Shown here: in pieces, positions 48,608-54,059 of the stretch
How positions within the stretch are numbered: position 1 is the stretch's first letter
Layout: every line of letters starts with the position of its first letter
Origin: an uncultured Nitrososphaerota archaeon
GTDB taxonomy: Archaea > Thermoproteota > Nitrososphaeria > Nitrososphaerales > CADDZS01
NCBI GenBank assembly: GCA_963799845.1
Contig: CAWCYI010000006.1
Span: 608,001-672,000, forward strand
DNA: 64,000 nt
Direction: 5' to 3'
Notes under the pieces: model-generated
Told to the model about the DNA's origin: nothing
Databases searched by the model: none
The model's input: the letters and a program-made list of their open reading frames with translations, nothing else
Position numbers and translations under genes: made by a program

Positions 48608-50302
48608 CTAACATCCAAAGTAGTCAGTCTGAGTTGTCGATGAGTCAGTCGCTGTTGAAGTGGTTGTTGAAGCGCAGCTATTTGTAAAAGTTGTAGCTGT
48701 CACGGTAGTTGCAGTTACAGTTGTTTCGTAAGTAGTTGTGGTTCCCCCATCAACTGTCTGATAAGTGGTAACTGATCCGCCATTAATTGTAGAAGTAGTA
48801 GTTGTACTATCAGTTTCAGTCGAGGTAGTTGTTGTGGTGGTTGTCTGAGTGTAAGTTGTAGTAACAGTTGTAGAATCTGTTTCCGTTGACGTTGAACTTG
48901 TAGTCGTCGCAAATGTCTGGGTAGTAGTCGAGGTCACAGCAGTTTGATCCGTTTCTGTCGATGTTGTAGTAGCAGGAACTGTCGATGTTGAAGTTGTGGT
49001 TATGGTGGTTGGATCCGTTTCCGTAGAAGTTGTGGTCGTAGGAATCGTAGTTGTAGATATGGTCGTATCTGTTGTTGTGGTGTTGTGTATATGAGTCGAC
49101 GTGGTGGTTGTAACGGTCGGAACTGTTATCGTTGTCGTCACACTTGTAAAGACATAATCAGTACCTGTCGATATAGTTGTAGTTGGAATGGTTTGGGTAG
49201 AGGTCGAAGTTATCGTGGCCTGATCCGTCTCTGTGTTTGTTATCGTAGTTTGATCTGTTTCTGTAGATGTCGTTGTAGTGGGAAATGTAGAAGTTGAAGT
49301 GATAGTCTTTGGAACGATTATCGTTGTTGTGCTAGTCGTAGAAGCCGTAGCGGTTGAAGTCGATGTCGTAATTGCTGGAATCGTCTGAGTAGAAGTCGAA
49401 GATACGGTGGTCTGAATTGTGTCCGTGGAAGTTGTCGTAGCAGGGATAGTCGTTGTAGAAGTTGTTGTAACGGGAATAGTGGTCGTAGAAGTTGTAGGAA
49501 TGGTCACGGTTGACGTTATCGTAGCAGGAATTGTCGTTGTAGATGTTGTTGAAGCGGAAATCGTCGCTGTAGACGTTGTGGTTGCAGGAATAGTATCTGT
49601 AGAGGTAGTAGTTGCCGCAACGGTTTGAGTGGATGTTGTAGACACCGGGATAGTAGTCGTTGAAGTTGTGGTTGCCGGAACGGTTGATGTTGATGTTTTG
49701 GTCGTAGGAATTGTGACTGTAGAGGTTACCGTTACTGGTATTGTTGTGGTCGAAGTCGTTGGCACTACTGAAGTCGAAGTAACTGTTGTGGTTGTCGAAG
49801 TTGGAATCGTAGTAGTCGAAGTAACTGGAATTGTTGTCGTGTACGTTGTGGCTGTTGCTACAGTTGAAGTTTCCGGATCCATGGAAGTTGAAGTAACTGT
49901 TTGAGTTGCAGTGGTTGAATCGGTCACAAGAGTCGAATCAGTCACTGTTGTCGTATCTGTGTCTGTAACGTGAGAGGTAGAGGTTACAGTCGTTGGATCG
50001 GTCAGAGTAGTATCGAAGGTTGATGTACTAGTCGTTCCGGTCATACTGGTCACGGTACTCGAGAAGGTCAGCGTAGTACTCGATATGAAACAACATGCAG
50101 TCGAGGTCGAAGTCGTAGTTTCAGTTTTACAGCAAGTCGTCTTCGTCGATGTTACCGTTTTGGTTGTTGTCTTAGTGGTCGTTTTTGCGGCTGTTGTTGC
50201 CGCTGGAGCTTGGCTCTGCGAAAAGGCCGAGGAAGAAACGGCCGTGAAAGCTACAAGGATAACCAAAAAGACCAGAGCCATTAAAGCGAATTTTCGAATC
50301 AA
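48608..50302 (-). CDS. Secreted Thr-rich repetitive (mucin/adhesin-like) protein
   Basis: Signal peptide MIRKFALMALVFLVILVAFTAVSSSAFS; many TTTSTxTIP-like repeats; CC..CC near the N-terminus and two Cys at the C-terminus. Confidence 0.85.
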   Translation of the reverse strand: MIRKFALMALVFLVILVAFTAVSSSAFSQSQAPAATTAAKTTTKTTTKTVTSTKTTCCKTETTTSTSTACCFISSTTLTFSSTVTSMTGTTSTSTFDTTLTDPTTVTSTSHVTDTDTTTVTDSTLVTDSTTATQTVTSTSMDPETSTVATATTYTTTIPVTSTTTIPTSTTTTVTSTSVVPTTSTTTIPVTVTSTVTIPTTKTSTSTVPATTTSTTTIPVSTTSTQTVAATTTSTDTIPATTTSTATISASTTSTTTIPATITSTVTIPTTSTTTIPVTTTSTTTIPATTTSTDTIQTTVSSTSTQTIPAITTSTSTATASTTSTTTIIVPKTITSTSTFPTTTTSTETDQTTITNTETDQATITSTSTQTIPTTTISTGTDYVFTSVTTTITVPTVTTTTSTHIHNTTTTDTTISTTTIPTTTTSTETDPTTITTTSTSTVPATTTSTETDQTAVTSTTTQTFATTTSSTSTETDSTTVTTTYTQTTTTTTTSTETDSTTTTSTINGGSVTTYQTVDGGTTTTYETTVTATTVTATTFTNSCASTTTSTATDSSTTQTDYFGC

Positions 50303-50427: not shown

Positions 50428-51177
50428 TTATGGGCAATTCACCTGAGTTTGTGTCGTCGTCGCACCGGTGATATCGCTTTCCGTACATGTTAGCGTGATC
50501 GTGGCGCCTGTCGTGATTCCGGTGACTGTAATTGTCTTTGTCACTTTTGTCGCTGTCGAAACCGTGGCAGTTGTTCTTTCGGTCTGCGTCGTAAGCGCAG
50601 TTTGTGTCGTGGACGCGGTTAAGGTACGAGTTGTGCGATCCGTTTGGGTTGTCTGAATAGTATCTGTGAGAGTCGTCGGAAAAGTGCTCGTTATCGTCTC
50701 GATTGTGGTCTCTGTGATCAGAACCGTGCCGGAAGTTAGTACAGTAGTTGTCTGCTCTTCAGTTTGATAAATTATTTCACTCATAACCGAGGTCGTAAAT
50801 GATGTCAGGGTCTGGGTCGCCGAACCGTTAGTCACGGTCGTGTAGATAGGAATCGTGAGCGTCGAATTCACGTTTGAAGTCGTTACCGTATAAGAAGTGA
50901 CTAGAGCTGTGCTGGTCCCGTTGATGAGCGTCGTTGTGAAATGATTGGTCTGCGTCACTGTTTCTGGTATCGTGGTCGTGGTGTTGACGTAGTTCGTAAT
51001 GTTTGTTTCGTCGGCATTTGTCGTCTGATTACCGGGTTGCGTCGTCACAGTGTAGGCTAGTGATGAAAAAGAGGACGAATTGAACGGGAATAAGGTCCTC
51101 TGGACTCCTATCACCCCAATTGAGATGGTCAAGATGATGGCTATGGAAATCACTGTGAGTATTGCTGATCTTTGCAT
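50428..51177 (-). CDS. Membrane-anchored/secreted Thr-rich protein
   Basis: N-terminal TM/signal, Thr-rich body with several NxS/T sequons, terminal C..C pair (LTCTE...VNCP). Confidence 0.8.
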   Translation of the reverse strand: MQRSAILTVISIAIILTISIGVIGVQRTLFPFNSSSFSSLAYTVTTQPGNQTTNADETNITNYVNTTTTIPETVTQTNHFTTTLINGTSTALVTSYTVTTSNVNSTLTIPIYTTVTNGSATQTLTSFTTSVMSEIIYQTEEQTTTVLTSGTVLITETTIETITSTFPTTLTDTIQTTQTDRTTRTLTASTTQTALTTQTERTTATVSTATKVTKTITVTGITTGATITLTCTESDITGATTTQTQVNCP

Positions 51178-51402: not shown

Positions 51403-52749
51403 ATGACGTTAGCGAAAGAGTTTAGCATTTACGGCGAAGATTACGGTACCTCGGAATTCAAGTTTGGCGTTGCTACGCTCGGGAATACGCCCGATGCCAT
51501 TGACTCCCGTGGATATTTCCCTGATATGAGAAGCGCTCTGCTGAACTTGAGTTCTCGTTCAGCAAAGACCATGTCGTCAGGGAGAAACAATCAGATGTTG
51601 GTTGTTGGACCCACCGTAGCACAACACCTGGAGGCTCGGCGTGACATCGCGGAGCGGATGGTTTACCCCATGCGGAACGGCGAAATCGAGTCAGACGATG
51701 AGAGAGCTTGGTTAGTGGTCAAAGAAATTACGCGTTATGGTCTGCTGAGGCACGCACCAGAGAAGGCGGTCGCGCCCGAGTTCAACGGCTTCAAATGCGT
51801 CGGTGCACTGTCTGCGACTGCTCCACGCTACATGTACGACAGGCTCATAGGGATTCATCGGGAGATCAACAATGAAGAAAACAGAACGCTCACAAGGGTC
51901 CTGTCCATCATACCTCAGCCTCTTGCAGTAGCTATCTCTCAGAAACGACTAGCGTGCACGGTTCTGGAGGGAGGACACGGTAACACTCAGGTCGCTCCCA
52001 TAAGCAGCGGAGTGATTTTCAGTGCGTTAACGACGCTCAATAGAGGGGGCAGCGACTGCGACCTGATCGCGGCCGAGATATTGAAGGATGCAGGCTATTC
52101 TGATCTCGCCCGCGAACCCAAACTCGTCAAGGTATTCAAGGAATCCACGGGTCTTATCCCGAAGAACTTGGACAAGGTGATGCAAGAAAAGCAGACCACC
52201 TTGTTTGAGACAACGTTCAAGATTCCGTCGACAAAGATCTCCATAAGTTTGGGCAAGAACAGCTGGCAGCGTTTTTTGATGGGAGAGTATTTCTTCAATC
52301 CGAACCATGAGATCTTTGCCTCTTATTACAGGAGAGGATTCCCGAGGCCGGCGGATACGTACAGCGAGGGAAGAGCTGTTCTTGGAACCACCGATCTGGC
52401 TGATGTCATCATCCAGTCCGTCCAAAAATGCAGTTTTGAAATTCAACCCGCACTCTATCAGAACATAATTCTGTCTGGCGGTAATTTTGCATGGCAGGTG
52501 CCTCCGAACCTGACGAATTACGCTGTCAACTCGCCCGCCAAGCTCAAGAAGATGCTCGAAGAAAAGGGAATCGCCGGAAGCACGGTCGAGCTCACGAAAA
52601 ATCCGGTCTACAATGTGTGGCAGGGATGCATTGCTTACGGGCTCTACACTCCTGAAAATTATGAATGGGACTGGGATTCGCGGGAAGGGTGGCTACAGCT
52701 CGTTGCGAGTGCGGAGCTGGGCGAACAGAGCATCAGTGCCGAAATTTAG
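51403..52749 (+). CDS. Crenactin (archaeal actin)
   Basis: Phosphate-1 GEDYGTSEFKFG, YPMRNG..DDERAW, LSATAPRYMY, IIPQPLAVAI, phosphate-2 EGGHGNTQVAPIS, LNRGG, EILKDAGYSDLARE, RFLMGEYFFNPNHE, IILSGGNFAWQVPP, VWQG..YG, REGW; colinear with Pyrobaculum crenactin as recalled. Confidence 0.92.
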   Translation: MTLAKEFSIYGEDYGTSEFKFGVATLGNTPDAIDSRGYFPDMRSALLNLSSRSAKTMSSGRNNQMLVVGPTVAQHLEARRDIAERMVYPMRNGEIESDDERAWLVVKEITRYGLLRHAPEKAVAPEFNGFKCVGALSATAPRYMYDRLIGIHREINNEENRTLTRVLSIIPQPLAVAISQKRLACTVLEGGHGNTQVAPISSGVIFSALTTLNRGGSDCDLIAAEILKDAGYSDLAREPKLVKVFKESTGLIPKNLDKVMQEKQTTLFETTFKIPSTKISISLGKNSWQRFLMGEYFFNPNHEIFASYYRRGFPRPADTYSEGRAVLGTTDLADVIIQSVQKCSFEIQPALYQNIILSGGNFAWQVPPNLTNYAVNSPAKLKKMLEEKGIAGSTVELTKNPVYNVWQGCIAYGLYTPENYEWDWDSREGWLQLVASAELGEQSISAEI

Positions 52750-52793
52750 CGAATAAAAAAATAGAGATATCCTTGCGCTAAAGATTCTGCGGG

Positions 52794-54059
52794 ATGTAAC
52801 CGGAAACGTCATCTGATGACGAGAACGCTCCCGAAGATGGAGCAACTATCCCAAGAGGAAGCGATGACGCTCCCATTCCTGCCGAGCGAACTATCGCTTC
52901 AGAGAGGAGATGGAGTAACCTCTCCTTTCCTCTGACGATAGTATTTGGCGTCTCGTTCATCTTTTTCCTGTATACGGCGAGTTATTCATGGTATGTGGGA
53001 GGGGGGGCTATGACTCAGAGCGTGCCCTGGCTGTATTCATCGGTTGCGATCTCGGGAGCAAGCCTCTTCGCGCTGAGCAATCTCTACATTTCCAGAAAAC
53101 TCCCGAAAATTACGTCTCTTCAAAGGTTTTTGCTATCATTCTTCGACCTAGGGGCATACTTTTGCCTTGTAGCGCTGGTCGTGTGGGGTTTGCTCTTTCC
53201 GATCCTGCGTCCGATCACCGATCCGAATTTTCAACTTTACTTACTTGGGCAAAAAAGTCTCGCGATGGATCTGTACACGGGGTTGGTCCTTTGCTCGATC
53301 GTGATCGTTTTCCGCATTGCGCTTCAGCTGCTAATTGCTCGTTCCAGCACAATCATGATTGTATCCCCTTCAAAGCCGCAATTCGGAAACACAATTCCGG
53401 TTAGAGATTCCTCGACGGATGGCGGTTCTCTTGAAAGCAAGATCTCATCAATCCACATGGAGATAACAAGGTTGAGAGAGGAAATCGCGTCGCTAAGTGC
53501 TCCGGGTACTGCTCTGAGGCTTACCAATCTGATGGGGGCGGTTGAATCGCCCGCGAATAACCGAGAATCGCCGGTTTCACTGGTAGACGAGATGGAAACG
53601 CTACCGTCAAGTCTAGCAGAAACCTTCGTGCAAAACCTTCCAACCAGAGATTCGGTTTCTCAAGAAACTGGAATGGAAGAAATGACAAACGGTGAGGTCA
53701 TCCAATCCGAGGCAAACTTTTCTCCAGAGTATTTTGCAAGTGCTGGAGGTCCACAGATTCCCGATTCTGCCAGGGATAATCCCTGGGCCTCGGTGCTTTC
53801 TAGAAGACAGCCGACGGCCCAGTCGAAGCCCATTCAGAAAAGAAGGGCAATCAAAAAGTCAAAGAAAAGGGTGCAAAAAGAAAAGCCTGGAGAAGATTCT
53901 CCGCCCATTCCTGTAGGAGTCGTGAAACTGGAACCGGGATCATCATCCCCGGTATCCGACGACGCACGCGACAGCCTGTCCTACTTCGCAATAATTTCTT
54001 CTGACAAAGATACTAGAGCCTTAGTCCGTCGCGTCGTGTTAGTTATCTGTAATACTTGA
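52794..54059 (+). CDS. Four-TM membrane protein with coiled coil and arcadin-2-like motif (start uncertain; in-frame ATG 52794 is followed by TAA)
   Basis: Frame is open from 52800 and adds a first TM (LTIVFGVSFIFFLYTA) ahead of track ORF 52995; coiled coil LESKISSIHMEITRLREEIASL; IPDSARDNPWASVLSRR at 53757-53807. Confidence 0.7.

Follow-up and report, generated by a model that had tools for sequence, protein, structure and literature searches.

The crenactin locus and the membrane protein encoded downstream

We analyzed a stretch of 64,000 nucleotides (the window) from an uncultured Nitrososphaerota archaeon, contig CAWCYI010000006.1, in which a gene for crenactin, an archaeal actin, is followed on the same strand by a gene for a predicted membrane protein. 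An earlier reading of the letters and open reading frames (ORFs), made from the sequence alone, had described the product of this second gene, here called the target, as an arcadin-2-like actin-binding helix fused to a four-helix membrane anchor. The analysis supported the idea of an arcadin-2-like, membrane-tethered crenactin binder; the likeness to arcadin-2 was limited to a short motif in the tail of the protein and, possibly, to the layout of coiled coil and linker ahead of it. The features of the two genes are given below, with the residues of the target numbered by the 419-codon frame 52800-54056 and its transmembrane (TM) helices numbered from 1 to 4.

51403-52749, + strand: gene for crenactin, 448 amino acids (aa), the presumed partner (NCBIfam NF053560, Pfam Actin, PDB relatives)
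52800-54059, + strand: open frame of the target by the uncorrected letters of the window, with 419 codons and a stop at 54057-54059 (no internal stops; homologues found)
52896-52997, + strand: TM helix 1, residues 33-66 (AlphaFold2, Kyte-Doolittle)
53007-53099, + strand: TM helix 2, residues 70-100 (AlphaFold2, Kyte-Doolittle)
53115-53216, + strand: TM helix 3, residues 106-139 (AlphaFold2, Kyte-Doolittle)
53250-53360, + strand: TM helix 4, residues 151-187, preceded by the strongly conserved TM3-TM4 loop, residues 140-150 (AlphaFold2, Kyte-Doolittle, family conservation)
53427-53498, + strand: short coiled-coil helix, residues 210-233, conservation 0.70 (AlphaFold2, family alignment)
53499-53753, + strand: acidic disordered linker, residues 234-318, poorly conserved (model, charge count, alignment)
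53754-53813, + strand: arcadin-2-type motif QIPDSARDNPWASVLSRRQP, residues 319-338 (profile comparisons, conservation, complex model)
53814-53894, + strand: basic patch, residues 339-365 (charge count; similar clusters in homologues)

The frame of the target begins 51 bases 3' of the crenactin stop. The crenactin itself was matched by the NCBIfam crenactin model NF053560 with 475 bits (E-value 1.8e-142), below the cut-off of 630 for this model and the lowest score among the full-length crenactins of our phylum sample. Pfam Actin matched as well, and the closest solved relatives were the crenactin chains 4cj7, 5ly3 and 5mw1 (E-value 8.8e-85). Judged by these matches, the product is a divergent crenactin.

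An AlphaFold2 model of the target, built on a 20-row alignment, had four long helices with a predicted local distance difference test score (pLDDT) mostly between 78 and 89 per 10-residue block. These helices agreed with the Kyte-Doolittle peaks and bore out the four hydrophobic segments seen earlier in the sequence. Basic residues were found both before TM1 ('ERRW') and in the TM2-TM3 loop (four K+R, no D+E), as had been noted, while the TM1-TM2 loop was uncharged. Because the charges follow the positive-inside rule and fit, together with the four confident helices, an N-in/C-in topology, both ends of the protein, and hence the tail, should be cytoplasmic, as had been proposed. Conservation in the family was 0.66-0.68 over TM3, TM4 and the loop between them; a conserved membrane domain with a conserved outer TM3-TM4 loop hints at a role beyond tethering. 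Neither Pfam nor NCBIfam had a match to the target at an E-value of 1 or below, the PDB sequences had none to the tail at 10 or below, the ESM Atlas gave no usable match or cluster for the target, and a Foldseek comparison of the target model with the PDB gave no match at 0.001 or below.

The elements described earlier for the tail were recovered as well. The short coiled coil corresponds to the helix 210-233 of the model, and the acidic low-complexity stretch holds 13 D+E against 3 K+R in 85 residues; the model is disordered over residues 235-316, with pLDDT below 50. The motif had been placed at 53757-53807, and this position was confirmed exactly, as I320-R336. It is the best-conserved segment of the family (0.83), with the linker at 0.38 and the remaining tail at 0.33. 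Residues P321, D322, N327, P328, W329, L333, S334 and R336 are invariant; the AlphaFold2 model had a short helix at 328-335, within the motif, followed by disorder. The Lys-rich patch counted 11 K+R in its 27 residues, and the homologues showed similar basic clusters after the motif or at the C-terminal end.

The family is small. A word-indexed search found 18 unnamed metagenome proteins, and a profile search of 1.84 billion representatives returned only 44 proteins at an E-value of 0.001 or below. The motif was conserved among the homologues, being present in 45 of the 53 family proteins. The eight members lacking it (P0021, P0029, P0033, P0037, P0039, P0040, P0049 and P0053) were either under about 300 aa, apparently fragments, or weak low-ranking matches. 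Among 301 sampled genomes of the class the TM protein was matched only in G000 and G035, and a scan of contigs by a narrow pattern found one locus only. A further match in G012 (E-value 5e-4) was set aside as a false hit, a 578-aa ORF that, as read from its sequence, resembles a multi-span transporter and has no motif.

The tail motif, arcadin-2 and the linkage to crenactin

For arcadin-2, the main text of Izore et al. 2016 (PMC5173319) reports that a peptide from R187 to R203, the last 17 amino acids, was crystallized in the hydrophobic groove of crenactin. It also reports that the C-terminal peptide binds the groove with a dissociation constant of 31 nM, has a key Trp and depolymerizes the filaments. 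The C-terminal helix of arcadin-2 had been cited in the sequence-only reading; we found that a 203-aa protein adjoining crenactin in locus L029 ends in RGGIGENEWVKILRSKR, which fits the description 'R187 to R203' in that text. According to the main text of PMC9723716, arcadin-2 has been reported for Thermoproteales, Caldarchaeales and marine Culexarchaeia.

Crenactin was present in 139 of the 401 sampled genomes of the phylum. We took ORFs from the 1.5-3 kb flanks of crenactin in 50 loci from other families (L007-L056), and in 44 of them an ORF 193-393 aa long carried N[PE]W..[VILM] at most 25 residues from the C-terminal end and, in the loci inspected, abutted crenactin; no N[PE]W ORF was found in these flanks for L011, L012, L014, L015, L016 and L043. 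This arcadin-2 set was picked by a pattern already seen in the window; the identity of its members rests independently on position, length and a shared N-domain. The prevailing end was LP[SD][FY]x[KR]DNPW[LVI]E[IV]L[SA][KR]RG, compared to [DE]NEWV[KR]ILRS[KR] in Pyrobaculum, and it is the prevailing LP...DNPW form that comes closer to the motif in the window.

A hidden Markov model (HMM) was built from the last 26 residues of 43 arcadin-2 proteins, with the long form in L045 excluded. Among 59,485 six-frame ORFs of at least 40 aa in the genome, the target was its first match (E-value 0.0018, 19.5 bits) and the only significant one, the next match having an E-value of 3.2 and 9.2 bits. We also compared the target family by hhalign with 33 arcadin-2 proteins, drawn from the 44 after removal of near-duplicates and of L045. 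This profile alignment, one of the checks proposed earlier, placed residues 313-339 on the C-terminal end of arcadin-2 over 27 columns (Prob 85%, E-value 6e-6), and the motif alone was aligned. The full arcadin-2 HMM again had the target as its first match in the genome (E-value 6.8e-5), through HMM positions 102-203 only, i.e., coiled coil, linker and motif. Taken together, the profile comparisons and the conservation in the family put the likeness of the motif above chance.

The arcadin-2 N-domain was not found in the target by either hhalign or the full arcadin-2 HMM; the four TM helices stand in its place. With the N-domain absent, we do not class the target as an arcadin-2 orthologue. By sequence it shares the binding module and the gene position of arcadin-2 and is a novel variant. 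The full arcadin-2 profile found no canonical arcadin-2 in the genome, the target being its only match, and arcadin-1-like queries had no match there.

To model the complex, crenactin (33-row alignment) was paired with tail residues 300-350 (18-row alignment). The motif was placed in the groove region of crenactin, as the sequence-only reading had expected, with scores of 0.85, 0.85 and 0.86, while the best of three controls scored 0.00. Of 80 solved complexes, 58 attained the mark set for this score, as did 2 of 110 mismatched pairs, counts that are only rough since the models of the present pair used our own alignments. At least 79% of contacts were shared between the runs, with a pLDDT of 60-62 for the partner. 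The confident interface joined tail residues 318-338 to crenactin residues 4, 6-7, 24-28, 177-183, 202, 400-421 and 428-429. The lowest expected error belonged to W329, in contact with crenactin residues 177, 178, 181, 183, 411, 412 and 415, and to L333, in contact with 178 and 411-416. Crenactin residues 177-183 align with actin residues 142-148, which we take to be part of the hydrophobic cleft of actin. Binding of the motif in the crenactin groove is a prediction of the model.

The gene for the TM protein is next to crenactin in nearly all relatives. We give the linkage as counts, with no test, since related genomes are not independent. In the metagenome loci crenactin stood directly upstream on the same strand in eight of nine, the ninth contig beginning inside the TM gene. 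Within the order, crenactin turned up only in families f1 and f9, with none in the 56 sampled genomes of f12. Family f1 (13 genomes), to which the window belongs, had crenactin in G000, G002, G004, G008 and G010, with a fragment in G011, and the TM protein in G000, G002 and G004 as well as, at the start of a contig, in G003; the two genes were adjacent wherever both were assembled, and in G002 as in G004 crenactin immediately precedes the TM gene. Among the 97 genomes of family f9, the TM protein was detected in 9, crenactin in 12 and both together in 8, with the genes adjacent in seven. A divergent adjacent copy missed by the profile, in G675, raises the number of f9 genomes with both to nine; in the remaining crenactin-only genomes of f9, crenactin lies at a contig end (G716, G719) or is a fragment only (G720). 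Even in another class, genome G182 has a protein with four TM helices, coiled coil, linker and motif adjoining crenactin.

On this evidence we consider it likely that the target is a membrane-anchored crenactin binder, which would attach crenactin to the cytoplasmic side of the membrane through an arcadin-2-type helix. A number of observations weigh against this. With a profile of 26 residues, the E-value of 0.0018 from the C-terminus HMM is, not surprisingly, modest. A complex of crenactin with the arcadin-2 peptide has already been solved (5LY3), so the success of the complex model may reflect memory. Conservation at the predicted contacts on crenactin is about that of the remaining protein (0.68 vs. 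0.65), and 10-14 of 32 contact residues are identical in Pyrobaculum-type crenactins, compared to about 37% identity overall. While distant family members (260-320 aa) have the motif 7-17 residues from the C-terminal end, in the window copy and its close kin it is internal, with 40-325 residues after it (about 55 in the window). In G737 the TM protein and crenactin are encoded 135 kb apart, and in G035 (95% complete, 110 contigs), which has the TM protein, no crenactin was detected even at an E-value of 1 or below. Finally, no ATG, GTG or TTG precedes TM1 in 6 of 10 loci compared, the window included.

The points on conservation of the interface and on G035 and G737, along with the basic patch after the motif, could be explained if the motif bound another partner, or were an amphipathic helix binding membrane or nucleic acid, its likeness to arcadin-2 being convergent. 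We regard this as very improbable. The two genes co-occur and are adjacent in nearly all other genomes; G035 is a draft, and the neighbors of its TM gene are those found in its close relative G737, which is 100% complete and does have crenactin. Proteins of a different type, the KaiC-type proteins of loci L057 and L059 described below, bear the motif again beside crenactin, and the genome-wide specificity of the arcadin-2 profile speaks against convergence.

Two ORFs just upstream of the crenactin in the window, 48608-50302 (- strand) and 50428-51177 (- strand), are extremely rich in Thr and laden with repeats, each with an N-terminal hydrophobic segment; by sequence they look like secreted or surface proteins. 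A separate observation concerns crenactin elsewhere: in G717 (L092, 1483-3711, - strand), as well as in G731 and G677, the gene carries an intein in frame. The insert in G717 matched Pfam Intein_splicing (1.4e-16) and LAGLIDADG_3 (7.9e-10). The insertion point lies in the conserved nucleotide-binding motif, between GHGN and TQ, and the resulting open frames span 806-992 aa.

Start and end of the target gene

Both ends of the gene, given earlier as 52794 and 54059, required revision. The relevant features are as follows.

52794-52799, + strand: ATG-TAA in the frame of the gene, part of the conserved element A[TC]GTA[AG] (contigs from runs X1 and X3 read the same)
52806-52808, + strand: ACG, candidate non-AUG start (invariant in 10 of 10 loci)
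53975-53994, + strand: one extra C at 53975/53976; the corrected frame stops at TAA 53992-53994 (short-read contigs, end of homologue)

The ATG at 52794 is immediately followed by TAA (52797-52799), which rules it out as the start given earlier; the frame opens only at 52800. The first in-frame ATG, GTG or TTG is the GTG at 52995, and a start there would remove TM1. We compared the 5' end in ten loci, namely the window, L067, L068, L070-L073, L075, L003 and L004. The peptide ahead of TM1, (E/K)KTSS(G/D)D...G.I.PRG, was kept across all ten with third-position wobble. A conserved element, A[TC]GTA[AG]GCGGAAAAG, stands 5' of the invariant ACG (window region 52794-52910); indels between A[TC]GTA[AG] and the ACG move the frame of the element, while the frame from the ACG onward is unchanged. 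Our best guess from this comparison is a non-AUG translation start at or near the ACG at 52806; the alternative is the ATC at 52893, which corresponds to the start of the closest homologues. For the family, the 5' pattern points to initiation at a non-AUG codon or to a start-stop leader of an unusual kind. The relatives in family f9 have an ordinary ATG start.

Two other explanations of the 5' end were considered and rejected. An ATG at 52837, in another frame, could be joined to the gene by a one-base assembly error; against this, the alignment with close homologues stays in the main frame across 'RRWSNL', and short-read contigs have the same letters. Readthrough of the TAA from the ATG at 52794 is unlikely, as L067, L068, L073 and L075 have no in-frame A[TC]G-stop. 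Public sequencing runs of the study behind the window gave contigs identical to it over 52600-53359, and a contig of run X3, from a different sample, spans 52630-52899, including the ATG-TAA and the region ahead of TM1.

At the 3' end, contigs of X1 and X4, from two samples, lack one base at 53975. Read without this base, the frame ends in ...CPTSQ, compared to ...DSSPTSQ in the closest homologue. Because the short-read contigs and the end of the homologue agree, the last 28 residues of the ORF in the window are most likely an assembly artefact, and the end at 54059 is probably wrong, the true stop being at 53992-53994 by the short-read contigs.

A gene lacking a canonical start ahead of TM1, with its C-terminal frame disrupted by the extra base, could also be a decaying or unexpressed copy. 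We find this hardly credible. The missing start is shared by six of the ten loci while the N-terminal extension and TM1 are conserved with wobble, which marks it as a trait of the family; the extra base, being absent from the short-read contigs of two samples, is an assembly error; and the frame runs through 419 codons with no stop.

A putative link between crenactin and the membrane

The reading that we favor, a crenactin binder anchored in the membrane, may work as follows. The target would be a four-helix integral membrane protein with both ends in the cytoplasm, and its coiled coil would probably pair two chains. A floppy acidic linker of about 85 residues would carry the amphipathic arcadin-2-type helix, followed by the basic patch. 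The core of the helix, DNPWxxVLSxR, would put its Trp and Leu into the crenactin groove between subdomains IA and IIA, the site that in the filament is the seat of the D-loop of the neighboring subunit. The protein would thereby hold crenactin at the membrane, either as monomers or at a filament end that exposes the groove. Two outcomes are conceivable: the protein might anchor or cap the ends of filaments, in the way ParR acts on ParM, or it might sequester and depolymerize crenactin locally, as with soluble arcadin-2.

The latter outcome, taken by itself, makes a different proposal: the target would be a local replacement of arcadin-2, a sequesterer or depolymerizer of crenactin merely confined by the membrane, and would neither anchor filaments nor bear force. 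Activity of the motif has been tested in arcadin-2 alone, and there it consists in monomer sequestering and depolymerization (main text of PMC5173319); moreover, the target holds the place of arcadin-2 after crenactin in a genome where the full profile found no canonical arcadin-2. Nevertheless, we think this proposal rather unlikely. The strong conservation of the membrane domain, notably of the TM3-TM4 loop, suggests more than a tether, and groove binders can also serve as end adaptors, as ParR does for ParM according to the same text.

The motif was also found on other proteins. In two sister genera, represented by G008 and G010, crenactin is preceded by a gene for a KaiC-domain protein (Pfam PF06745, E-values 7e-20 and 7e-45), and the tails of the KaiC-type proteins carry, near the C-terminal end, the arcadin-2-type motif as ...LPNAVKDNPWTKIISERN or ...NENPWASIISSRE. 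The gene downstream of crenactin in these genera codes for a vWA protein with a coiled-coil end. The flanking genes were located as follows.

L057, 139-1071 and 2819-4039: KaiC-type and vWA genes flanking crenactin
L059, 45-1187 and 2802-3911: KaiC-type and vWA genes flanking crenactin

Genes for vWA proteins also flank crenactin in G182 and stand beside it in L045. In G000, phmmer found none of the vWA partners of the sister genera, and only generic KaiC paralogues with no motif. The soluble protein P0052 (249 aa) has two tandem arcadin-2-type motifs, at positions 200 and 234, which recalls tandem WH2 repeats. Since it is found on KaiC-type proteins and in tandem in P0052, the motif behaves, as far as sequence can tell, as a portable module on different proteins, again beside crenactin.

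A broader proposal, which we put forward tentatively as a possibility, is that the helix of arcadin-2 would be a portable short linear motif for crenactin binding, the equivalent in archaea of WH2, placed by evolution on at least four scaffolds: the arcadin-2 N-domain, the four-TM membrane domain, the KaiC-type ATPases and tandem copies. The membrane form, paired by its coiled coil, might then hold the growing, groove-exposing ends of double-stranded crenactin filaments at the membrane in the manner of ParR or formin. If true, mesophilic soil Nitrososphaerales would have a device coupling actin to the membrane, beyond what soluble arcadin-2 offers.

The organization of archaeal actin in the cell has been described as unexplored (main text of PMC7613921) and the roles of the arcadins as unclear (main text of PMC10936438). 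In the main texts of the literature on crenactin and the arcadins we found no membrane-anchored arcadin-2-type protein or crenactin partner from Nitrososphaerales; the supplements of PMC5173319 and PMC9723716 may already show the NPW form. With the target, the proposed link between filament and membrane has a concrete candidate that can be put to the test, one bearing the only crenactin-binding element with a solved mechanism. That the motif recurs on unrelated proteins next to crenactin points to a modest network of regulators of actin, all assembled around a single short helix, much as actin binders evolved in eukaryotes.

Among known systems, the nearest is arcadin-2 itself, from Pyrobaculum calidifontis and its Thermoproteota relatives. 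In both cases the gene comes right after crenactin, and the protein runs from a coiled coil through a non-conserved linker to a short helix, conserved and marked by an invariant N-x-W and [VI]L with basic residues behind. On the other hand, arcadin-2 has a soluble N-domain of about 110 residues where the target has a conserved four-helix membrane domain, and its helix is at the very C-terminus, compared to the internal motif of the target subfamily with a basic patch after it. The hosts differ too: arcadin-2 belongs to thermophiles, the target to mesophilic soil Nitrososphaerales.

In bacteria, RodZ is a membrane-anchored protein that binds the actin homologue MreB via its cytoplasmic part, as we propose for the target and crenactin. 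It differs in having a single TM helix and a helix-turn-helix domain, in binding a different surface of MreB, and in showing no sequence relation to the target.

The pair of ParR and ParM, which segregates bacterial plasmids, resembles the proposed arrangement in its mode of binding: a short helix of the adaptor sits in the groove of the actin-like protein in the same orientation as arcadin-2, as described in the main text of PMC5173319. ParR links filament ends to a cargo, and here the cargo would be the membrane. ParR is, however, a DNA-binding protein with no sequence relation to the target, whose own binding to filament ends is presumed.

The helices of WH2 and thymosin beta-4 are, like the motif of the target, short, portable and amphipathic, and they bind the groove between subdomains 1 and 3. 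As with the WH2 type, the motif of the target occurs on several unrelated scaffolds. The parallel with WH2 concerns portability and the groove, and thymosin lies in the reverse orientation (main text of PMC5173319).

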